Under the pieces are notes generated by a model that made no database searches, was not told where the DNA came from, and saw only the letters and a program-made list of their open reading frames with translations. A stretch of DNA of 64,000 bases, from assembly GCA_964528395.1 (NCBI GenBank), contig CAZGTC010000004.1:26840-90839 (forward strand), in the 5' to 3' direction. Position 1 is the stretch's first letter; every line of letters begins with the position of its first letter. Below, one piece after another: positions 2,271-26,150 of the stretch. The stretch comes from an uncultured bacterium. Lineage in GTDB: Bacteria > Margulisbacteria > WOR-1 > CAZGTC01. The translations under genes and the position numbers were made by a program.

Positions 2271-2852
2271 ATGCAGCAATTTTTTATTATTATTCTTAGC
2301 GCGGTTTTTATCAATAATTTTATCCTCTCTCGTTTTCTGGGAATTTGTCCTTTTTTGGGGGTATCTTCGCAGATAGAAGCATCAATCGGCATGGGATCTG
2401 CGGTTATATTTGTCATGACCATGGCTTCAGCTGCAGCATGGCTGATCCAGTCTTTTATTTTGAACCCCTTTGGCTTGGGATTTTTACAAACCATTTTTTT
2501 TATTTTAATTATTGCGGCTCTTGTCCAGCTAACTGAATTTGTTATCAATAAATACAGCCCCGCCCTAAAACAAGCATTGGGAATTTACCTGCCTTTAATT
2601 ACTACGAATTGCGCGGTTTTAGGAGTTTCTATCCTAAATATCATGAAAAATTACTCCTTTATTGAAAGCACCGTAAATGGCGCAGCTTCGGGCATTGGTT
2701 TTACCCTGGCACTGGTTTTGATGGCTGGGATAAGGGAGAGGCTGGATCTGGCCCCCATCCCCAAACCGCTTAAAGGCGTGCCCATTACCCTAATTACTGC
2801 GGCCTTGATGTCCATAGCATTTTTGGGATTTATCGGCTTAATTACAGAATAG
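2271..2852 (+). CDS. rnfA: Rnf electron-transport complex subunit A (RnfA/NqrE family).
   Basis: 193-aa polytopic membrane protein. Hallmark RFLGICPFLGVS motif. Adjacent to an RnfB-like gene. Confidence 0.8.
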   Translation: MQQFFIIILSAVFINNFILSRFLGICPFLGVSSQIEASIGMGSAVIFVMTMASAAAWLIQSFILNPFGLGFLQTIFFILIIAALVQLTEFVINKYSPALKQALGIYLPLITTNCAVLGVSILNIMKNYSFIESTVNGAASGIGFTLALVLMAGIRERLDLAPIPKPLKGVPITLITAALMSIAFLGFIGLITE

Positions 2853-2859
2853 GTTTTTT

Positions 2860-3669
2860 ATGGAAACTATTATTTTATCGATTCTATTTTTAACTGGCTT
2901 GGGCCTGCTCTCCGGCCTTGGCTTGGGCTATGCTTCAGAAAAATTCAAGGTAGAAATTGACCCTCGCGTTGCAGCAGTTTTAAAAGCTCTTCCGGGCAGC
3001 AATTGCGGTGCCTGCGGAAAAGCTGGCTGTATGGGGCTAGCTGAAGCGATCGTAAAAGGGGAAGCCGAGGCCAATGCCTGCCTAGCCGGGGGACAAGAAG
3101 TTGCAGAGGCTGTCTGCAAAGCCTTGGGCCAACAAACCCAGCCAGAAACGCGCTCTCCCCAAACTGCAGTTATAAAATGCGGATCTGGCCGTGCGATCTG
3201 CGCCTCTAAATTTGATTATATTGGGGAAGAAACCTGCAAAGATGCCGCGGCTATTGCCGGGGGATTCCTGGCCTGCTCAAAAGGCTGTTTGGGGTACAAT
3301 GATTGTATAAAAGTTTGCCCTTTTGATGCTATGTTCCCTAATCCTGAAAAAGGAAAACCTCCAATTATCGACCGGGAAAAATGCCGGGCCTGCGAGAAAT
3401 GCATTAAAGAATGCCCGCGCAATGTTATTATTCTAGAGCCTAAGAAGCGCGAAGTAACCATGCTCTGCGCCAGCATAGATAAAGGCGCGCAAACTAGAAA
3501 AGACTGCAAAATTGGCTGCATTGCCTGCCAAATTTGCGTAAAAAAATGCCCGGTTCAAGCCATCACGATGTTCGGCCGCATTCCTGTAGTAGATGAGGAA
3601 AAATGCACTTTGTGCGGAGAATGCATCAAAGCCTGCCCGACAAAAACCATTGTTAATTATAAAAGCTAA
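2860..3669 (+). CDS. rnfB: Rnf complex subunit B (polyferredoxin).
   Basis: N-terminal TM helix, a CGACGKAGC cluster, and three CxxCxxCxxxCP 4Fe-4S ferredoxin motifs. Confidence 0.8.
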   Translation: METIILSILFLTGLGLLSGLGLGYASEKFKVEIDPRVAAVLKALPGSNCGACGKAGCMGLAEAIVKGEAEANACLAGGQEVAEAVCKALGQQTQPETRSPQTAVIKCGSGRAICASKFDYIGEETCKDAAAIAGGFLACSKGCLGYNDCIKVCPFDAMFPNPEKGKPPIIDREKCRACEKCIKECPRNVIILEPKKREVTMLCASIDKGAQTRKDCKIGCIACQICVKKCPVQAITMFGRIPVVDEEKCTLCGECIKACPTKTIVNYKS

Positions 3670-3753: not shown

Positions 3754-4617
3754 ATGAAAAAAAAGCCAAAAATCATCATTATTATCGGGCCAACTGCAGT
3801 AGGAAAAACCAAATACGCCATAAAACTTGCCGAAACCAAGAACGGGGAAATTATTTCCGCGGATTCCATGCAGGTTTATAAAAAAATGGATATTGGAACT
3901 GCCAAGCCAACAAAAAAAGAACAGCAAGGCATAAAACATTATCTTCTAAGCATAAAAAATCCGGATCAAAGCTGGACCGTTGCAGATTTTATTTTTGAAT
4001 GCAGAAAAAAAATCAAAGCTATCTTAAAAAAAGGCAAACTGCCGATTATTGTTGGCGGAACTGGCTTGTATATCAATGCCCTGCTCCAAGGATTCAGCTT
4101 CCCGATCATTGAAGCTGATTTAAAGTATCGGAAAAAGCTCTATAAACGCGCGGAAAAACAAGGATCCCCAAAACTGCATGAAGAACTCCAAAAAATTGAT
4201 CCTTATGCTGCCAAGAAAATCCATCCCCATGATCTAAAACGCATTATTCGCGCGCTGGAAGTTTTTCATAAGACCGGCCAAATGATTTCACAGGTACAAA
4301 CCAAAAATCCCCTATCCAATGAATATGATATCCAAATTAAATTCCTGGATATGCCAAGGGAAAAACTTTACGCGCGCATTAACCATAGGGTAGGCAACAT
4401 GATAAAAAAAGGGTTAATCAAAGAAGTAAAAAAATTAAAAGCCAAAGGATATGATAAAAATCTTCCCTCTATGCAAGGCCTTGGCTACAAAGAAATTTTT
4501 GATTACTTAGACAACAAAACTACCAAAGAAGCCGCCATTGATCTTATCAAACAAAAAACCCGCAACTTCGCCCGCCGCCAGCTTGTTTGGTTTAGGCGAA
4601 TTCTAAGAGAGCAATAG
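3754..4617 (+). CDS. miaA: tRNA dimethylallyltransferase.
   Basis: GPTAVGKT P-loop, ISADSMQVYKKMDIGTAKP and GGTGLY motifs typical of MiaA. Confidence 0.85.
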   Translation: MKKKPKIIIIIGPTAVGKTKYAIKLAETKNGEIISADSMQVYKKMDIGTAKPTKKEQQGIKHYLLSIKNPDQSWTVADFIFECRKKIKAILKKGKLPIIVGGTGLYINALLQGFSFPIIEADLKYRKKLYKRAEKQGSPKLHEELQKIDPYAAKKIHPHDLKRIIRALEVFHKTGQMISQVQTKNPLSNEYDIQIKFLDMPREKLYARINHRVGNMIKKGLIKEVKKLKAKGYDKNLPSMQGLGYKEIFDYLDNKTTKEAAIDLIKQKTRNFARRQLVWFRRILREQ

Positions 4618-8117: not shown

Positions 8118-8981
8118 CTACATATTTGTATCGTATAAAATTCTTTTGCTTTGCTGTATTATTAGAGGTGCGATTTTAAAAGTTTGAGTTATATATGTCA
8201 TAGTAGGTTCCGCATAGAATTGTCCTTGTTCAATTGCAGCACCAGATATAGTATAAGTATTATTATAATAATTCACAATTCCTTCGGCATCTAGTTTCAT
8301 AAGGGCAGGATCTGTTTGTTTCGCAATTAAACGAATTATTCCGATACGATTATCAAAATCCATCTGAGAATTATCCCCAATCATTCCTTTTATAAAACTA
8401 ACATAATCACCTTTCCCTGGCCCACCAGGAACATCTTCTGCCATCTTAAATTTCCTCACTGGCTGTTGAAAAGGATCTAGGCCTTTTCCAATATAAACCA
8501 AATATGGAGAAGCAAAACCATTTACTTGATCAATTTTTTGTTTGGTTGACCAAGCATATAAATCAAATTTTCCCTTTGGATAAGTTCCACTGCTAACAAC
8601 GTCCTCAAAAACAATTTCAATTTCGATTTCGCCCTCATTAAAAACTACGGTCCTTTTATTCTGCATAACAGGAACCAGTGCTCGTTGAGCGAGATCCTTT
8701 AATGTATTTTGTAACCTAACCTTAAACTGTGTCTCATCTATTTGAATCTCATTTTTCTGTGTTTTCTTCATCTGATAAGTTTTTGGAGGAGCTCCATCTC
8801 TTCCCATCGCAGGCTTAACCTCTTCTACAACAATTTTTTTTGTGCCTTCTATACTCGAAACACCAGCCCCTTGGGATTGCTTCTCCTGCGGAATATCTGG
8901 TATAAGCTCAAAATCCTCCGCAATAGCCACTAGACCCAAAACCAAACTCAACCCCAAAAATAACATCAAAAACCTTTTCAT
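8118..8981 (-). CDS. Secreted hypothetical protein, paralogue A.
   Basis: Signal peptide MKRFLMLFLGLSLVLGLVAIAEDFE is nearly identical to that of the 9959..11263 ORF. GAAGGGGG RBS. Upstream and downstream flanks are shared with the paralogue. Confidence 0.5.
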   Translation of the reverse strand: MKRFLMLFLGLSLVLGLVAIAEDFELIPDIPQEKQSQGAGVSSIEGTKKIVVEEVKPAMGRDGAPPKTYQMKKTQKNEIQIDETQFKVRLQNTLKDLAQRALVPVMQNKRTVVFNEGEIEIEIVFEDVVSSGTYPKGKFDLYAWSTKQKIDQVNGFASPYLVYIGKGLDPFQQPVRKFKMAEDVPGGPGKGDYVSFIKGMIGDNSQMDFDNRIGIIRLIAKQTDPALMKLDAEGIVNYYNNTYTISGAAIEQGQFYAEPTMTYITQTFKIAPLIIQQSKRILYDTNM

Positions 8982-9023
8982 AAAAACCCCCTTCTTTTTT
9001 TTATTTACCTAAATCTTAACACG

Positions 9024-9055
9024 AGCATAATAATAATAATAATAATCAATGTCAA
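9024..9055 (-). promoter_or_regulatory. Putative sigma70-like promoter of paralogue A: TTGACA (9050-9055, minus), 20-nt spacer containing (ATT)6, TATGCT -10 (9024-9029).
   Basis: Hexamers read on the minus strand. Spacing is 20 nt, against 17 nt for the paralogue. Confidence 0.4.
9029..9046 (-). repeat. (AAT)6 trinucleotide tract inside the promoter spacer of secreted paralogue A.
   Basis: Direct read. Flanked by the conserved context AACACGAGCAT(AAT)nC, which is also present upstream of paralogue B with n=4. Confidence 0.8.
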
Positions 9056-9958: not shown

Positions 9959-11263
9959 TTAAGGGGTAACACGTATTATAAAAGTCTTTTCAATCCTCCA
10001 ATCAAGATGCTTATTATAATTATCAACATTTGGATATCGTTGTTTAATTTCTTCCCTCACTTTATTATAGTGAACAAGCATATCCTTTAAGTTAATCGTA
10101 TAGACATAATCACTTATTAGCTTATCTTTTTCCAAATCAAAAAGCACAAAATGAATTTTCGCATTTGAAAGCTCTTGATAAACTTTACCCTTGGCATCCG
10201 TCATATCATAAGGAACTACCACCCAATTCCCAATGATTGAAGAATAAGCTTGCTTTTGAATATCTTCTATTAAACGAAGCCCATACTTACGCACATCGCG
10301 TGGAGCTGTATTTTCTCCTTCTCGATGTTTTTCACCGACTCCTTGATAATATTTATCAGAGTGAGGATCCATTCTTTTATCTTTTGGGTGAAGTATCGCC
10401 AATAAATTAATTGCCTGGTATTCATAATAAACTAAACATCCTACATTCACCCAATCTTTCATTATCTCCAAATTAACGGGTAAATTCATTGCATTATCAA
10501 ACCTTATTTCGAAATCTAGAAATAAAGTAAAAATGGGTTTTTGGGCTCCATTAGGAAAAATATAATCATTGGCAGGAAAAGTCCTATAAGTACAGGTTGT
10601 ATTACCCTTATTCACGCTACTAATATCCTCAAAAACATATTGCATTGTCATATTCGACGGCATAATTTGATCTTTTACAACTAACCCTTTCATTGGAATC
10701 CCTGTCCCTCCAGTTTGAGGAGAAAACTGCTTCATATCTTCTGCTTTCTGTGCCCCTGTCTTAAATTTAGGAATCCCTCCCAATCTATTAAAAAAATCTT
10801 TTTGTGGAACCATATTAATAATTCCTGTTGTCCCAAATATTTTCAGATCCGATACAAAATTAAGAGAATTTCCCTCGCCATCGCCAAACGGATCATTATT
10901 TATTAATTGAGGTTTTGCTTCTATAGGCTGGGTCCCTGAAGCCTTTGGCATTATTTGTAAAGATTCAGTACCTGGAATCGTTGGTTTTATTTGTACCGGT
11001 TGAGCCCCTGGACTGGTTGGCCCCATTTGTAAGGGCGGGGCTCCCTGATTTACAGGTTTCACTTGTATGATTTCGGCTTCTTTTGTTATTATTTTTTCTT
11101 CATATTCATCCCTAAGCTGGAATTGTTGTTGTGGAGGGAGTTTTTGTTGTTCTTTTGGAGCTGGGGGTAGAACTTGTTTTTGGAGTATCTCAAAATCCTC
11201 TGCAATTGCAGCAAAGCCCAAAAACAAGCACATTCCTAAAAACAAAATAAAAATTTTCTTCAT
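9959..11263 (-). CDS. Secreted hypothetical protein, paralogue B (Pro/Gln-rich linker).
   Basis: Signal peptide MKKIFILFLGMCLFLGFAAIAEDFE shared with the 8118..8981 ORF. AAGGGGG RBS. Same 5'UTR and 3' repeat. Confidence 0.5.
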   Translation of the reverse strand: MKKIFILFLGMCLFLGFAAIAEDFEILQKQVLPPAPKEQQKLPPQQQFQLRDEYEEKIITKEAEIIQVKPVNQGAPPLQMGPTSPGAQPVQIKPTIPGTESLQIMPKASGTQPIEAKPQLINNDPFGDGEGNSLNFVSDLKIFGTTGIINMVPQKDFFNRLGGIPKFKTGAQKAEDMKQFSPQTGGTGIPMKGLVVKDQIMPSNMTMQYVFEDISSVNKGNTTCTYRTFPANDYIFPNGAQKPIFTLFLDFEIRFDNAMNLPVNLEIMKDWVNVGCLVYYEYQAINLLAILHPKDKRMDPHSDKYYQGVGEKHREGENTAPRDVRKYGLRLIEDIQKQAYSSIIGNWVVVPYDMTDAKGKVYQELSNAKIHFVLFDLEKDKLISDYVYTINLKDMLVHYNKVREEIKQRYPNVDNYNKHLDWRIEKTFIIRVTP

Positions 11264-11296
11264 AAATGCCCCCTTATTTTTCTTAAACTAAACACG

Positions 11297-11325
11297 AGCA
11301 TAATAATAATAATCGAGGTTGTCAA
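11297..11325 (-). promoter_or_regulatory. Putative sigma70-like promoter of paralogue B: TTGACA (11320-11325, minus), 17-nt spacer containing (ATT)4, TATGCT -10 (11297-11302).
   Basis: Hexamers read on the minus strand. Optimal 17-nt spacer. The shared 5'UTR continues to a GAAGGGGG/AAGGGGG RBS. Confidence 0.45.
11302..11313 (-). repeat. (AAT)4 trinucleotide tract inside the promoter spacer of secreted paralogue B.
   Basis: Direct read. Same flanking context as at 9029-9046. Confidence 0.8.
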
Positions 11326-20646: not shown

Positions 20647-21057
20647 TTAAGCATTGCCTTCTGGAAAGGATTCCAACATTTCAGGCGCAATTTCCACTTG
20701 GTCAGAGCCTTTTTCCTTGTCCACACTCTGCGCTTCAGGAGAAGCCACTGGAGCCGAGGGCACGGAATGCGTAATCACAAAACGGATAACGCTCTCTGTA
20801 ACCCGTAAAAGCTCGCTTAGGATCGGGGGAACAGTTGAAGGCCCAGAAAAAGATGTTTGCACAAAAATTGCTTCTCTTAATTTTTTGTCTTTTTTGTAGT
20901 TGCAGTAGATCGAGCGGCGCATAGGAGAGGAAATTTTTTCGATTTGCCCCCCATTTTGGGTAATACGGTCGGAAAAGCGCGTCATGAGATTGTTGCGCTC
21001 TTCCTCTGTAACCTTGGGATCAAAAAAACACAAAAAATCGTACTTTCTGCTGTGCAC
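20647..21057 (-). CDS. rpsF: 30S ribosomal protein S6 (GTG start).
   Basis: S6-like core (RKYDFLCFFDP ... ELLRVTESVIRFV). AGGAGGA RBS 7 nt upstream of an in-frame GTG at 21055-21057. The longer ORF-track N-terminus is not conserved. Confidence 0.65.
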   Translation of the reverse strand: MHSRKYDFLCFFDPKVTEEERNNLMTRFSDRITQNGGQIEKISSPMRRSIYCNYKKDKKLREAIFVQTSFSGPSTVPPILSELLRVTESVIRFVITHSVPSAPVASPEAQSVDKEKGSDQVEIAPEMLESFPEGNA

Positions 21058-21093
21058 CGAAAATCCTCCTCTATAATAGTTAAGCCAATCAAG

Positions 21094-21157
21094 CCAGAGA
21101 CTAAACGTCTCGGCTTCCCTAATATTTTTGGCAACCGCGACGTTCAGTCGCAGGTTC
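21094..21157. ncRNA. Conserved ~64-nt two-hairpin element, copy A, lying 37-100 nt upstream of rpsF (minus-strand operon).
   Basis: About 85% identical to 26008-26069. Hairpin 1 is GAGAC-TAAAC-GTCTC. Hairpin 2 is AACCGCGAC-GTTCA-GTCGCAGGTT. Confidence 0.45.
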
Positions 21158-21194
21158 AAAAGAAGGGAAATTGTAGCATAGAACCTTTGGTTTT

Positions 21195-22280
21195 TCAAAC
21201 ATTAAAGCGGAAAATAACTACATCGCCTTCGCGCATAGCGTAAGACTTTCCTTCGGTCCGCAGCCGGCCTTTTTCGCGCGCTTTGGCCCAAGATCCGCAG
21301 GCCACAAAATCATCAAAAGACACAACTTCTGCGGCAATAAAACCCCGCTGGATATCTGAATGGATTTTGCCCGCGCCCTCTGGAGCCATGGCCCCTTTTT
21401 GCACGGTCCAGGCCCGGGCCTCTTTTTCTCCTGCAGTAAAAAAAGTTATCAAATCCAGCAGCTGGTAGCTGGCGCGGATAAATTGGTTTAGGCCCCGCTC
21501 CCCGATTCCCAGCTGGCAATAATATTCCTGGGCTTCTTTTTCCGGCAGGTCCTTTAATTCCCCTTCTAATTTGGCGCAAATGGCAATGGCCTGGGATTTT
21601 TCTTTTTGCGCATATTGGGATATTTTTTTAAATTCCTCAACATTCCCGCTTTCATCTACATTGGCTACATATAAAACCGGCTTAAAAGTAAGGAATCCCC
21701 AGGGAGCCAGCAATTCTTTTTCTTCTTTGGATAAAACTAAGTTCCTAATCGGCTCCCCGGAAGCTAGGCTTGGCTTAATTTTTTTCAGGAGCTCCCATTC
21801 CTGTAAAGCTTTTTTGTCTTGGGATTTTACGGTTTTTTCTTGTTTTTCCAAACGGCGCTCCGCGGAATAAAGATCCGCTAAAAGCAATTCTGAATTGATC
21901 ACTTCTATATCGCGGATCGGGTCAAGGGAAGCATCCACATGCACGATATTCTCGTCTTTAAAGCAGCGCACTAAGTGGACAATTGCATCTACGCTGCGGA
22001 TATGCGAAAGAAACTGGTTTCCAAGGCCTTCGCCCTTATGCGCGCCCTTGACCAGGCCGGCAATATCATTGAACTCAACAATCGTGGGCGTAATTTTTTT
22101 GGATTTTTCCAGTTGCGCCAGCACTTGCAGGCGCTCGTCCGGGACTTTTACAATGGCCACATTGGGATCAATCGTGCAAAATGGATAGTTGGAAGCCTCG
22201 GCCTTGGCTTCTGACAAAGAATTGAAAAGCGTGGACTTGCCGACATTGGGCAAACCAACAATGCCAACCGAAAAACTCAT
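21195..22280 (-). CDS. ychF: Ribosome-binding ATPase YchF (Obg-family GTPase).
   Basis: GIVGLPNVGKSTLFN G1 motif and C-terminal TGS domain. 361 aa. Confidence 0.85.
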   Translation of the reverse strand: MSFSVGIVGLPNVGKSTLFNSLSEAKAEASNYPFCTIDPNVAIVKVPDERLQVLAQLEKSKKITPTIVEFNDIAGLVKGAHKGEGLGNQFLSHIRSVDAIVHLVRCFKDENIVHVDASLDPIRDIEVINSELLLADLYSAERRLEKQEKTVKSQDKKALQEWELLKKIKPSLASGEPIRNLVLSKEEKELLAPWGFLTFKPVLYVANVDESGNVEEFKKISQYAQKEKSQAIAICAKLEGELKDLPEKEAQEYYCQLGIGERGLNQFIRASYQLLDLITFFTAGEKEARAWTVQKGAMAPEGAGKIHSDIQRGFIAAEVVSFDDFVACGSWAKAREKGRLRTEGKSYAMREGDVVIFRFNV

Positions 22281-23137
22281 TTTACATCTACTACTTTCAG
22301 GCTCATATCCAAGCTTTTAACGGAATGGGTCAAGGCGCCGATGGAAATATAGTTGATGCCGCATTTAGCGTAAGCTACTATGTTTTTTTCATTAATGCCG
22401 CCCGAAGCTTCAACTTCTAAATTGGATTTGGCATCCTTGATCAATTTAATGGCTTGTTTCACTTGGCTGGGATTCATATTATCCAATAAAACCTTGTTTA
22501 TCCCTTCCAAAGCCAAGACTTCTTTTATTTCCTGCAGGGATGAAACCTCTACCTGTACCGAATATTTGCCTTTGTATTTTGTTGCAACTTTTTTCACTGC
22601 TGCAGTAATGGAACCCGCAACTTTTATATGGTTGTCTTTGATCAAAATCGCATCAAACAAGCCAAAGCGGTGGTTTTCTCCCCCGCCCAATTTCACGGCA
22701 TATTTTTCCAAAACCCTTAAGCCCGGAGTGGTTTTGCGCGTATCCAAAACATCTACATTGTGCACATAAACTAAATCTTCAAACTGGCGGGCTGCAGTTG
22801 CAATGCCCGAAAGCCTTTGTAAAAAATTGAGCGCCACCCTTTCCCCTTCTAAAATCGCCTTAGCGCTGCCTTCAACTTCTGCAATCACAATCCCAGCGCG
22901 CGCTTTGATGCCTTCTTGCACTTTGGGGCGGAAATGGACTCTTTTATCCAGCATAAAAAATACTTCGCGCGCTACCGGCAGCCCAGCCACCACCCCTTTT
23001 TCTTTGAGCTCAATATAGGCCTTGGCCCAGCGCCGCGGCTCAACAATAGCTTCGGTTGTAATATCTCCCTTGCCCAAATCTTCTTCCAGCGCCTGCTTGA
23101 CCACAGGCTTGATATCCTTAACTTCTAAACGATGCAT
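22277..23137 (-). CDS. nadC: Nicotinate-nucleotide pyrophosphorylase (carboxylating).
   Basis: QPRTase motifs (RVALNFLQRLSGIAT, LDNM). Confidence 0.8.
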   Translation of the reverse strand: MHRLEVKDIKPVVKQALEEDLGKGDITTEAIVEPRRWAKAYIELKEKGVVAGLPVAREVFFMLDKRVHFRPKVQEGIKARAGIVIAEVEGSAKAILEGERVALNFLQRLSGIATAARQFEDLVYVHNVDVLDTRKTTPGLRVLEKYAVKLGGGENHRFGLFDAILIKDNHIKVAGSITAAVKKVATKYKGKYSVQVEVSSLQEIKEVLALEGINKVLLDNMNPSQVKQAIKLIKDAKSNLEVEASGGINEKNIVAYAKCGINYISIGALTHSVKSLDMSLKVVDVK

Positions 23138-23152
23138 AAAAACATCCCCCTT

Positions 23153-23971
23153 TTATTTTAGAATAACCCAAACCGCATAGTAATAAACCACTGGCGCTGC
23201 CAGGATAAAACTGTCCAAACGGTCGAGAACTCCGCCATGCCCGGGAATTAAATTGCCTGAATCTTTTACTCCGGCATCACGCTTGATCAGGGATTCAACT
23301 AAATCCGAAATTACGGCCAAAACCCCGATAATCAATCCCAAAATTGCCGCATGCCAAAGGTTCATATTCATAAAATAATAGCCCCAGGCTACGGCTGAAA
23401 TAATACAAAAAATAATTCCTGCCAAAGCCCCTTCAATAGTTTTTTTGGGGGAAATGCTTTTTGAGAGGGCATGCCGGCCAAAAAATTTGCCAAAAAAATA
23501 AGCAATAATATCATTGGACCAAACCGAAAACATAAGGAAAAAAATATAGGCGCCATGGTCCGTCAAAGCCCTAAGAAAAAGAAAATAGCTGAAAAACCAG
23601 CCGATATAAATCATGCCCAAAAGCGTTACTGCAATATCCACAATGGCTTCTTCTGCGCGTTTAATAAAAACCGCGGCGGACAAAGTCAACATGCAGGCTA
23701 AGGTCAAAATAAAAGAATGCCCGGGCTCCCAGTTTTTTTTCAGGGCATAGTAGGCGGCAAAAATAAAAAAGATCACCACCAAGTTCCCCAGGTAAACTGC
23801 GGGATGGTAGTCTTTGCGCCGCATTAAATTGTAAAATTCATTTACTCCGGCTAAGGCCAAAGCCAGGATCAAAACCAAAAAAGCAAATCCCCCCCAATAA
23901 GTGCAAGCCACAATAATTGGGGCAGCAATCAAGCCGGTTAGCGTCCGGGCAAAAAATTTAGACCCGACCAA
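23153..23971 (-). CDS. cdsA: Phosphatidate cytidylyltransferase.
   Basis: Polytopic membrane protein with the C-terminal CdsA signature (GHGGVLDRLDS). Confidence 0.75.
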   Translation of the reverse strand: MVGSKFFARTLTGLIAAPIIVACTYWGGFAFLVLILALALAGVNEFYNLMRRKDYHPAVYLGNLVVIFFIFAAYYALKKNWEPGHSFILTLACMLTLSAAVFIKRAEEAIVDIAVTLLGMIYIGWFFSYFLFLRALTDHGAYIFFLMFSVWSNDIIAYFFGKFFGRHALSKSISPKKTIEGALAGIIFCIISAVAWGYYFMNMNLWHAAILGLIIGVLAVISDLVESLIKRDAGVKDSGNLIPGHGGVLDRLDSFILAAPVVYYYAVWVILK

Positions 23972-24707
23972 AGCGTCTCTCCCTTTTTTGGTAATCTAAT
24001 AAGGCTTTGGCCATTTCTTCGCGGTTGAAATCCGGCCAGCATTTGTCAGTAACGTAAATTTCGGCATAAGCCAGCTGCCATAAGAGAAAGTTGGAAATGC
24101 GCATTTCACTGGCCGTGCGGATTAGGAGGTCCGGATCCGGGATTTCAGCCGTGTATAAATATCGGGAAAAAAGTTTTTCATCTATGGACGAATTTTTTCC
24201 TTCGCTTAAAATACGGTTAACCGCATCCACGATTTCTGCCCGGCTGCCGTAATTAAGCATAATATTTAAATTTAAGCCTTGATTGTTTTTGGTGGCGTCT
24301 TCTGCGCGCTTGATTTTTTCCTGCAGGGCGCTGGATAACTGGGAAGTTCGGCCAAAAAAACGGATGCGCACTTTATTTTCAATCAAAGAAGAAAGTTCTT
24401 TATCTATGGTATTGGATAAGAGCTCCATCAGGGAAGAAACTTCTTCTTTGGGCCTTTGCCAGTTTTCCGTTGAAAAGGCATAGAGCGTCAAATATTTTAT
24501 TTTGAATTCCCCGCAGGCCTTTACTGCTGCGCGGACAGATTCTGCGCCCATATGATGGCCGGCCGCGCGCGGCAAGCCCCTTTTCTTTGCCCAGCGGCCG
24601 TTGCCGTCCATGATAATAGCAATATGCTGCGGTAATTTTTCTATTTTGGCCGGCCCTAAGTTAGCGGGGAAAAAAGGCTCTAAAATTTTCTTGAGTAATT
24701 CCCTCAT
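23958..24707 (-). CDS. uppS: Undecaprenyl-diphosphate synthase (cis-prenyltransferase).
   Basis: HIAIIMDGNGRWA, and the ENWQRP, IRTSGEMRISNFLLWQ-type motifs. Confidence 0.85.
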   Translation of the reverse strand: MRELLKKILEPFFPANLGPAKIEKLPQHIAIIMDGNGRWAKKRGLPRAAGHHMGAESVRAAVKACGEFKIKYLTLYAFSTENWQRPKEEVSSLMELLSNTIDKELSSLIENKVRIRFFGRTSQLSSALQEKIKRAEDATKNNQGLNLNIMLNYGSRAEIVDAVNRILSEGKNSSIDEKLFSRYLYTAEIPDPDLLIRTASEMRISNFLLWQLAYAEIYVTDKCWPDFNREEMAKALLDYQKRERRFGRV

Positions 24708-25261
24708 TAAACTTCCATTATTTCGGCTTCTTTGTTTTTTTGCAGCTTGTCGATTTCTGCGGAAAATTTATCCGTTACTTTTTGGATTTTTTCTTCAGAA
24801 GACTTGGCTGCATCCTCGGATATTTCCTTATTTTCTTTTTGCTTCTTTAAGGCATCTATAACTTCGCGGCGGATATTTCGCAAGCTGACTTTGCTTTTTT
24901 CTGCTTCGGTCTTTATGAGCTTGACCAAATCCCTGCGGCGTTCTTCCGTGAGCTGGGGAAGAATCAGGCGCACAACCCCGGCTTCGATAACCGGATTAAG
25001 GCCTAAATCGGATTTTTGGATGGCTTTTTCTATATCTTTCAGCGAATTTTTATCATAAGCCTGGATAACCATCATCCTCGGTTCTGGCACCGCGATTTGC
25101 GCCAGCTGCTTTAAAGGCGTAGTTGCCCCATAATATTCAACTACAATGTTATCCAGCAAAGCTGGGGAGGCCCTCCCGGTCCTTACCCCGGCAAAAGTTT
25201 TTGCTGCAGCTTCGATCGTTTTTTTCATCTTGATTTCAGTTTCTTGTACGATGTCAGGCAT
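24707..25261 (-). CDS. frr: Ribosome recycling factor.
   Basis: [12 protein letters not shown] motif. AAGGAGGAG RBS upstream of MPDIV. 184 aa. Confidence 0.85.
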
Positions 25262-25997
25262 GGCTTTTTTCTCCTCCTTGTCGCGTTTCAATCAGGGTCC
25301 CGACCTTGCGGCCGAGCACTGCTTTTTCGATATTGCCGGTTAAATTAAGATCCAAAACTAAAATCGGAATATTATTATCCATACAAAGCGATGCTGCAGT
25401 TGAATCCATTACTTTTAGCCTGCGCTTTAAAATATTCATATGCGACATGCGCTTGAATTTGCGCGCATCCTTATGCAAAAATGGGTCCTTGTCATAGACC
25501 CCGTCCACTTTGGTAGCTTTGAAAATAATGTCTACGCTCAATTCCGCGGCGCGCAGCGAAGCCGTGGTATCCGTTGTAAAATAGGGGTTTCCCGTGCCCC
25601 CGGCCAAAATAACGATCCGGCCTTTTTCCATGTGGCGGATGGCGCGGCGCCGAATAAAAGGTTCGGCAATCTGGCGCATTTCAATCGCGGATAAAACCCG
25701 GCTGGCCAAGCCTTCTTTTTCCAAGGCGTCCTGCAAAGCTAAAGAATTTATAACGGTTGCGAGCATGCCCATATAATCGCCGGTGGCGCGCTCAATGCCG
25801 GATGCTTCGCCGGATAATCCGCGGAAGATGTTCCCCCCGCCAATAACAATCGCAATATCCACTTCGTGTTTTTTGACTTTTTTCAGCTCGCGGGCTATAA
25901 CCTGTAAAACCGAAGGGTCAATGCCGGATTTTTTGCTGCCCCCCAAAACCTCCCCGGACAACTTCAACAGAATCCTTTTATATTTTGGCTTGCCCAT
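25254..25997 (-). CDS. pyrH: UMP kinase.
   Basis: [18 protein letters not shown] and amino-acid kinase fold motifs. Confidence 0.9.
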
Positions 25998-26007
25998 AAA
26001 TGACTGC

Positions 26008-26069
26008 CTTTATGTAACCAGAGGCTAAACGCCTCGGTTTCCATACTATTTGGTAACCGCGACGTTCAG
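26008..26069. ncRNA. Conserved ~64-nt two-hairpin element, copy B, lying 11-72 nt upstream of pyrH (minus-strand operon), in the pyrH/mnmG divergent region.
   Basis: Hairpin 1 is GAGGC-TAAAC-GCCTC, a compensatory A:T to G:C change relative to copy A. Hairpin 2 is identical. Confidence 0.45.
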
Positions 26070-26150
26070 TCGCAGGTTCTATAGGGTAAAACTGGGTAAT
26101 TATATCATCTCTAGAGGGAAGGTGTCAAAGTATGCTAGAATCTATCGCTT

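Follow-up and report, generated by a model that had tools for sequence, protein, structure and literature searches.

The closest described systems to the element reported here are the repetitive extragenic palindromic (REP) sequences and bacterial interspersed mosaic elements (BIMEs), which together with the REP-associated tyrosine transposase (RAYT) TnpA-REP form the 'REPtrons' of Enterobacteria, and the REPIN-RAYT systems of Pseudomonas (PMC3116915, PMC3333891, PMC5581495, PMC6006769). Classical REPs carry a GTAG or CGTC foot (PMC3733652, PMC6006769), and intragenic REPs in repair genes and tRNA synthetases are known from other REP families (PMC3733652). Here we compare with these systems a two-hairpin element of ~64 nt that occurs upstream of rpsF and again upstream of pyrH in a 64-kb stretch of a Margulisbacteria contig (CAZGTC010000004.1), the whole of which is referred to below as the window. 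We conclude, with a probability of roughly 85%, that both 64-nt elements are non-autonomous mobile repeats of REP/REPIN type that landed in 5' untranslated regions (UTRs), and not a dedicated regulatory element.

The observations that carry this conclusion are dispersal, a doublet architecture, intragenic copies, flanking of a transposase gene and empty sites. We read the window elements as insertions rather than as a dedicated regulator because the same units are dispersed, often lie in frame within essential genes, and flank the gene of a Y1 transposase.

Hairpin doublets in the rpsF and pyrH leaders

Copy A occupies 21094-21157 and copy B 26018-26079; an earlier note on this DNA had placed the first correctly and the second ten bases too far to the left, at 26008-26069. 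Each copy is ~64 nt long with two hairpins, and 56 of the 64 aligned columns are identical (87.5%, with 6 substitutions and a 2-nt gap), in agreement with the repeat of about 85% identity that the note had described. On the minus (sense) strand both copies read AACC-U-GCGAC-UGAAC-GUCGC-GGUU, a spacer, and AA(G/A)CC-GAG(A/G)C-GUUUA-G(U/C)CUC-U-GG(C/U)UU. The former hairpin is, as the note stated, identical in A and B, which share exactly the 24-mer AACCGCGACGTTCAGTCGCAGGTT (0 occurrences in 100 dinucleotide shuffles). The latter carries the compensatory change to which the note had drawn attention, GAGAC/GTCTC in copy A versus GAGGC/GCCTC in copy B (A-U in A, G-C in B), and we found a second compensatory pair in its outer stem, AAGCC/GGCUU versus AAACC/GGUU (G-C in A, A-U in B). 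The two hairpins of each copy are inverted, slightly diverged versions of one unit, so that the 64 nt can alternatively adopt a four-way junction or a single long hairpin. The latter is the minimum-free-energy structure of the 69-71-nt stretch, at -27 to -29 kcal/mol and with a z of about -4.2 to -4.3. The features of both leaders are as follows, empty sites being those of L115, a syntenic locus described below.

20647-21057, minus strand: rpsF (ribosomal protein S6), with a GTG start at 21057, a GGAGG ribosome-binding site at 21066-21070 and PF01250 on orthologues.
21089-21157, minus strand: doublet A, a REPIN-like inverted unit pair in the rpsF 5' leader; against the empty site in L115 the insert runs from ~21155 down to 21089.
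21091-21116, plus strand: R-type unit of copy A (hairpin 1 of the earlier note), inverted, AAGCC-A-GAGAC-TAAAC-GTCTC-GGCTT; core 21094-21113.
21133-21156, minus strand: L-type unit of copy A (hairpin 2 of the earlier note), AACC-U-GCGAC-UGAAC-GUCGC-GGUU; 20-nt core 21135-21154, the core being the family consensus.
21170-21198, minus strand: predicted sigma-70-type rpsF promoter, TTGAAA-17-TACAAT with a TG extension, 10 of 12 consensus positions.
25254-25997, minus strand: pyrH (UMP kinase), first gene of pyrH-frr-uppS-cdsA-nadC-ychF, with an ATG at 25997; Pfam labels from the syntenic L115.
26014-26085, minus strand: doublet B in the pyrH 5' leader; against the empty site in L115 the insert runs from ~26085 down to 26014.
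26016-26039, plus strand: R-type unit of copy B, AACC-A-GAGGC-TAAAC-GCCTC-GGTT; core 26018-26037.
26055-26078, minus strand: L-type unit of copy B, same sequence as that of copy A; core 26057-26076.
26099-26128, minus strand: predicted pyrH promoter, TTGACA-18-TATAAT, 12 of 12 consensus positions; kept in L115.

Gene identities in the window were taken from open reading frames (ORFs) combined with the Pfam labels of syntenic loci, and the promoters are predictions from consensus matches. In both leaders the doublet lies on the sense strand, with the predicted sigma-70-like promoter before it and the rpsF or pyrH start codon after it. The placement of the two copies by the earlier note, upstream and in sense of rpsF-ssb-ssb-rpsR-rplI and of pyrH-frr-uppS-cdsA-nadC-ychF, was right, but the equal distance that it stated does not hold: the 20-nt core of the proximal unit ends 36 nt from the start codon in A and 20 nt in B, and the distance from the end of the -10 box to the doublet is 12 nt in A versus 19 nt in B. 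The predicted rpsF promoter is kept in loci L114, L115 and L116 and overlaps the end of ychF, whose TGA stop falls inside the -35 region, a layout that is the same in all three. Given their location downstream of predicted promoters, the window copies would form the 5'-terminal parts of the rpsF and pyrH transcripts.

Protein searches with the window RpsF returned three close homologues in the collection and no relatives in metagenomes. Loci L116 and L117 carry the same sequence as the window. In L115, where RpsF is 67% and YchF 84% identical to those of the window, the gene order is that of the window (mnmG, then pyrH-frr-uppS-cdsA-nadC-ychF-rpsF-ssb-ssb-rpsR-rplI), and both promoters and both ribosome-binding sites are retained. 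Both doublets are absent from it, with no unit within 20 kb. As L115 keeps promoters and ribosome-binding sites without the elements, its leaders are empty sites and the window doublets are insertions. Doublet A is present in L114 (RpsF 88% identical), with the outer stem of the gene-proximal hairpin decayed. Compared with L115, the inserts are bounded by 4-nt direct repeats, TTGA for A (21156-21159 and 21089-21092) and TTAC for B (26086-26089 and 26014-26017); with two cases and ambiguous alignment ends, they may reflect a target duplication or a cleavage motif, or have arisen by chance.

A scan allowing up to 3 mismatches, together with a relaxed scoring scan, found no copies in the window beyond these four units. 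Rfam gave no family for the window copies at gathering or relaxed thresholds, only chance microRNA-like matches, and the whole window contains no tRNA or tmRNA gene by ARAGORN and no Rfam family at the gathering threshold. Two further candidates were rejected. A tRNA-like cloverleaf, suggested by the four-way junction of copy B, is at odds with the empty ARAGORN result and with the covarying outer pair of copy A, which fits the two-hairpin (doublet) form. An intrinsic terminator is likewise excluded, since neither hairpin is followed by a U-tract, as the earlier note had also remarked, and a terminator scan lists nothing there. Elsewhere in the window, two stretches of ~130 nt at 8907-9040 and 11189-11313 are 75-88% identical and lie 2282 nt apart (repeat-scan families D1, D6 and D11); they probably cover the beginnings of paralogous minus-strand genes together with the sequence upstream of them.

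A dispersed family of palindromic units

We scanned 185,579 species genomes with the degenerate core pattern AACCNNNACGTTCAGTNNNAGGTT, for which about 17 chance matches are expected by our own arithmetic. The pattern matched 106 stretches, 7 of which are chance matches in unrelated phyla with a non-complementary NNN. The ~99 matches whose free stem positions are complementary come from 26 assemblies, all of them Margulisiibacteriota, Saganbacteria, WOR-1 or unlabelled metagenome-assembled genomes (MAGs). Under the strict pattern each assembly contains 2-17 copies, the MAGs being incomplete, and relaxed detection gives more. None of the 106 pattern loci contains rpsF, pyrH, ychF or frr. The best named relatives of the window YchF, in Margulisiibacteriota and Saganbacteria, are only ~58-60% identical to it, which places the window in a divergent lineage sharing the exact 20-nt core; this core is identical between the window and MAGs at that same distance in YchF.

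A hairpin scan of the pattern loci recovered 214 units of one type, CC-T-[G(C/A)G(A/G)(C/A)]-[T(G/A)AAC]-stem'-GG, which group into 72 doublets and ~70 singlets. In each unit, an imperfect palindrome of ~30 nt, a variable outer stem is followed by AACC, a single bulged base, a stem of 5 bp and the loop T(G/A)AAC. The doublets are strictly convergent (72:1, convergent to divergent) with a modal gap of 18 nt between cores, and usually pair one unit with a TGAAC loop with one unit with a TAAAC loop. The window elements are ordinary doublets of this dispersed family, which bears out the last alternative offered by the earlier note, a REP-like element.

To describe the stems we used a gapless alignment of 105 pattern matches, each extended by 10 nt in both directions (A2). 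At pair 17-29, left free in the search, 73 sequences have C-G and 30 have A-T; among the outer pairs, 10-35 is A-T in 52, G-C in 39, T-A in 6 and C-G in 2, and 8-37 is G-C in 46, A-T in 15, T-A in 14 and C-G in 5. Paired cells amount to 78.5%, versus 35-44% after the partner columns are slid. The stems of R-type units, which were collected without a stem constraint, are 95-98% Watson-Crick, and at three of their five positions two alternative pairs occur, including A-T/G-C alternation. G-T intermediates are almost absent from the stems and the hairpin is equally good on either strand. The earlier note had taken the covariation between the two window copies as a sign of selection on RNA; covariation of this Watson-Crick-only type is that expected of a family of DNA palindromes, and agrees better with a palindrome recognised as a DNA hairpin than with selection on an RNA of one orientation.

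The units are by no means confined to leaders. Of 142 elements, 56 (~39%) are embedded, with margins to either side, in ORFs that are 200 aa or longer; the intergenic ones occur between tandem, convergent and divergent genes alike and in either orientation. Such copies, scattered widely over ~99 places in 26 assemblies and also inside genes, are what the earlier note had itself named as the mark of a selfish repeat. Hosts confirmed by Pfam domains on both sides of the insert include LeuRS (two sites), ValRS, MutS, PolA and a UvrD-like helicase, as well as a MetH-like protein, a MiaB-like protein, Lnt, an AMP-binding enzyme and HemN. Across 81 intragenic units the five open reading frames are all used, and the sole frame containing a stop is never used; the peptides most commonly encoded are NRDVQSQ (e.g., NRDVQSQV) and P(A/E)T(E/K)R(R/L)G. 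Several genomes carry units at the same LeuRS and ValRS positions, where complementary changes distinguish their outer stems. This in-frame placement concerns family members elsewhere, both window copies being intergenic.

Other palindromes occur in the loci examined. A second palindromic family, CCCTCTC(C/T)-N3-8-(A/G)GAGAGGG, has 21 matches in 13 loci and none in the window (L107 at 6042, 11297, 11347 and 12458; L109 at 6310; L110 at 1719; L017 at 1921; L068 at 3951; L086 at 269, 1280 and 3992), and it too occurs in frame within genes, for example in the HemN-like ORFs of L017 ('PLPLGEGERGGEG') and L068. A third, GC-rich palindrome, CCTGCC(N3-6)GGCAGG, typically CCTGCCTGCCGGCAGGCAGG, has 25 matches in 21 loci, again with none in the window (among them L018 at ~7876, L039 at ~1883, L048 at ~2830, L101 at 2937, 4654 and 6709, and L114 at 3507); several of its copies are nested in the loop of an R-type unit and one lies within the second ssb gene of L114. 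In L066, two oppositely oriented units about 1.5 kb apart, at 2462-2485 (minus strand) and 4034-4057 (plus strand), each have GGAGGGTGTCCAACAACT beside them, and on one side an ORF starting MKFKEYSQGQQWLIPPNIEDEIPK follows, a layout that resembles an insertion sequence in or beside hairpins.

An IS200-like Y1 transposase gene beside the units

At two loci, ORFs beside the hairpins match PF01797 (8e-23 and 1e-20), and the two proteins score 73.8 and 71.3 bits against the NCBIfam IS200 model, for which the cut-off is 55. Eighteen homologues share HVH, W and Y...Q without exception, with the motif YIxxQ...G.DKR; under the scheme of PMC6006769 this set is that of class 1 (IS200-like) and not of the REP-associated class 2. 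The closest solved structures are IS200/IS605 TnpA proteins (2FYX, 2XM3), including that of ISDra2. A large protein collection contains 25 homologues, each on 1-3 contigs and named in the source as IS200/IS605 transposase or RayT.

Units flank the transposase gene in L104, L065, L068, L107, L109 (two genes), L110 and L119, with L016 as a variant; the unit upstream shares the strand of the gene, the one downstream is on the other strand, and the units often form arrays. On three metagenome contigs the gene has a conserved position, groEL-nusA-infB-rbfA-DHH-truB-ligA-(variable small genes)-Tnp-SpoU methylase-pheS-pheT...mutS, and a second paralogue lies directly upstream of mutS in L109, L104 and L011, so that L109 holds two paralogous transposase loci. 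No tnpB was found in the flanks of the transposase genes. This arrangement, an apparently low-copy Y1 (HUH) transposase gene set between inverted units in a conserved neighbourhood, is REPtron-like, or REPIN-RAYT-like.

As an independent test, 80 metagenome loci were fetched by protein profile alone. Adjacent units were present at 19 of the 36 loci whose transposase is at least 41% identical, and absent from the 39 most distant loci (L161-L199, 122,578 bases) and from the other five loci of 39% identity or less. Three loci of 41-57% identity without adjacent units (L125, L128 and L136) show no obvious alternative hairpin. L142, representing a more distant transposase clade (44% identity, on the same contig as L113), has no family units; downstream of its gene lies a different hairpin in two copies, GAGCCGAC(G/A)CT..AG(C/T)GTCGGGTC, at 2905-2928 and 2980-3003, which hints that hairpin and transposase diversified together.

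Between the upstream hairpin array and the transposase lie one to three small genes that are unrelated among genomes (L107 8832-9996, L109 8882-9943 and 14543-15277, L110 9272-9997, L104 1903-2349). No conserved partner gene was found beside the transposase, except for an 87-89-aa coiled-coil-like protein common to L107 and L109, and the position looks like a variable hot spot. The transposase homologues often end in repeat-encoded tails (KPRRLVSGF, GSRDVQSQA), since the called ORFs run into downstream units; this run-through can be followed at L107 10397-10487, L109 10397-10538 and L110 10397-10511, and in columns ~150-200 of the protein alignment A3.

By analogy with TnpA-REP (RAYT) and with IS200/IS605 TnpA (PMC3333891, PMC3479197, PMC6006769), the transposase may recognise the hairpin as single-stranded DNA, through its bulge, loop and inner stem, and would cut and rejoin it, thereby spreading or maintaining the units. 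The window copies, presumably transcribed within the rpsF and pyrH 5' UTRs, would then most likely be neutral passengers of their mRNAs, or at most generic 5' stem-loops affecting mRNA stability or translation.

Competing explanations and comparison with known systems

Several observations weigh against placing the window elements among REP-type repeats. The family numbers tens of copies per genome, not hundreds, and the window holds only two doublets in 64 kb. A GT(A/G)G or CGTC foot is not present: the columns flanking the stem are unconserved in alignment A2, and CGTC occurs only at the junction of loop and 3' stem. Location is not predominantly extragenic, with 56 of 142 elements intragenic and ten hosts verified by Pfam. 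The transposase lacks the YIxxNP motif of the RAYT/TnpA-REP sequence class, and the same two proteins that exceed the IS200 cut-off fall below that for RAYT (NF047646; 51 and 49 versus 80 bits). About half of the closer metagenome homologues of the transposase have no adjacent unit. A tblastn search found no transposase gene in the window, and the neighbours of that gene, ligA, pheST, mutS and others, are not there either. Finally, both window copies are sense-oriented directly behind strong predicted promoters, as are the family members in L015, L076, L086 and L088.

This last point leads to exaptation, in which a mobile insertion is now in use, its hairpins stabilising the mRNA against 5'-end-dependent decay or tuning ribosome access as a feature shared by rpsF and pyrH. 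A secondary role in 5' UTRs is possible, because the window copies and several family members follow promoter-like boxes in sense: the former start 12-19 nt past the -10 box, in promoters that match the consensus fully or nearly so, and the four latter sit between a -10-like box and a ribosome-binding site. The fold is stable (z about -4.2 to -4.3), and REPs have been reported to influence mRNA stability (PMC3733652). However, the orientation of tandem intergenic doublets is not significantly biased (18 are sense and 11 antisense), the gene-proximal hairpin of the 88% relative L114 has a decayed outer stem, and the 67% relative L115 manages without the element at both sites. We therefore consider actual use of the window copies unlikely.

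Improbable to a similar degree is that the units are the ends of a still-autonomous insertion sequence of IS200/IS605 type, with the doublets as its miniature inverted-repeat transposable element (MITE) derivatives, that is, palindrome-associated transposable elements, instead of parts of a domesticated REP-RAYT system. The transposase itself speaks for this, as its score is that of an IS200 equivalog, while it also has the Y...Q motif of class 1 (PMC6006769), finds its nearest solved structures in ISDra2 and other IS200/IS605 TnpA proteins, and is present as two paralogues in L109. Its genomic setting does not: the gene occupies the same housekeeping neighbourhood on three metagenome contigs and lies upstream of mutS in three others, each protein cluster is confined to 1-3 contigs, there is no adjacent tnpB, and lone singlet units are common. 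The ends of IS200/IS605 elements lie on the same strand, whereas the units flanking this gene are mutually inverted and often in arrays.

The reading that the earlier note had ranked first, a cis-regulatory leader, ribosomal-protein site or small structured RNA, is not supported and is already contradicted. As a dedicated RNA leader of translation-related operons, whether an S6:S18 or other ribosomal-protein site or a riboswitch, the element would be expected where it was noticed, in the 5' UTRs of two operons with translation-related genes, and its hairpins do differ by compensatory changes. Nevertheless, the same unit is found before, after and within dozens of unrelated genes, flanks a transposase gene, is absent from both orthologous L115 leaders and has no Rfam match at either threshold, and its covariation is Watson-Crick only and strand-independent, which makes this reading very improbable. 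Least probable of all is that the palindromes serve a host protein as DNA sites, for example as targets of a dimeric regulator or nucleoid protein or as a DNA-uptake signal, and were spread or kept for that reason without a transposase: E. coli REPs do bind IHF and gyrase, and the core is identical in genomes whose YchF is only ~58-60% identical to that of the window, but variable stems that retain complementarity point to recognition of a hairpin and not of duplex sequence, the specific association with one transposase clade is strong, and intragenic copies argue against an operator function.

Within the preferred reading of the elements as mobile REP/REPIN-type repeats, it is tempting to speculate on their age. 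The family may represent an ancient, previously undescribed REPtron built on an IS200-class (Y...Q) transposase, domesticated independently of the classical RAYT classes and with a role at the level of the host. An identical 20-nt core at ~58-60% YchF identity, compensatory stems at apparently orthologous LeuRS and ValRS sites, and the addition of translated peptides to a sizeable set of core proteins all point in this direction, although we hold the proposal as tentative and, on balance, doubtful. If true, such persistence would imply a host role of the transposase-hairpin pair, in single-stranded DNA processing or in the structure of transcript 5' or 3' ends, and not plain parasitism.

For the window, these results remove a tempting false lead, since the covariation marks a palindromic mobile repeat and not a regulator of translation-related operons. 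They also document a REP/REPIN-like system in Margulisbacteria, a little-studied sister group of Cyanobacteria, and give annotators of MAGs a concrete pattern for spotting such insertions in genes and leaders. Our literature searches on repeats and transposases of the Margulisbacteria group turned up no description of such a family. An IS200-class transposase, a footless hairpin and a large share of in-frame copies in essential genes (aminoacyl-tRNA synthetases, MutS, PolA) should be of interest to the REP-RAYT field.

Of the known systems, the S6:S18 (rpsF) leader shares with the window only a structured element in the rpsF 5' UTR; unlike that leader, the present element is not kept at the orthologous L115 site, recurs at unrelated loci and inside ORFs, and matches no Rfam family. 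IS200/IS605 elements (IS608, ISDra2) and MITEs come closer: they have the closest transposase sequences and structures, their hairpins adjoin the gene, and a doublet corresponds to a left and a right hairpin minus the gene. In contrast to them, the flanking hairpins here are inverted and not on one strand, arrays occur, the gene is syntenic, apparently low-copy and without tnpB, and single units disperse. Rickettsia palindromic elements (RPE-1, RPE-4/6) and intragenic REPs (PMC3733652) resemble the family in lying in frame in housekeeping genes, where they add 8-30 residues, and in occurring as single units and dimers. They also share its host classes, namely PolA, UvrD-like helicases, other repair genes and aminoacyl-tRNA synthetases (PMC3733652). 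The sequences of the RPEs are unrelated to it, RPE-1 is longer, and CGTC-type repeats and RPEs lack the dedicated flanked transposase that the Margulisbacteria family has.

The resemblance is greatest to the REPtrons and REPIN-RAYT systems, which likewise consist of short imperfect palindromes, present as singlets and as inverted doublets foldable into one long hairpin, with inverted units, often arrays, flanking a Y1 HUH transposase gene in a conserved housekeeping neighbourhood, low-copy there and apparently so here, and with a separate hairpin family for each transposase clade. The Margulisbacteria family differs from them in the absence of a GT(A/G)G foot, in its IS200-like (Y...Q) transposase, in its tens of copies and in an intragenic share of ~39%, far above the mainly intergenic picture of classical REPs. 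Altogether, the kind of element is already known; what is unusual is an IS200-class transposase in a REPtron-like setting, combined with the lack of a GTAG or CGTC foot, a modest copy number and the high proportion of intragenic copies.

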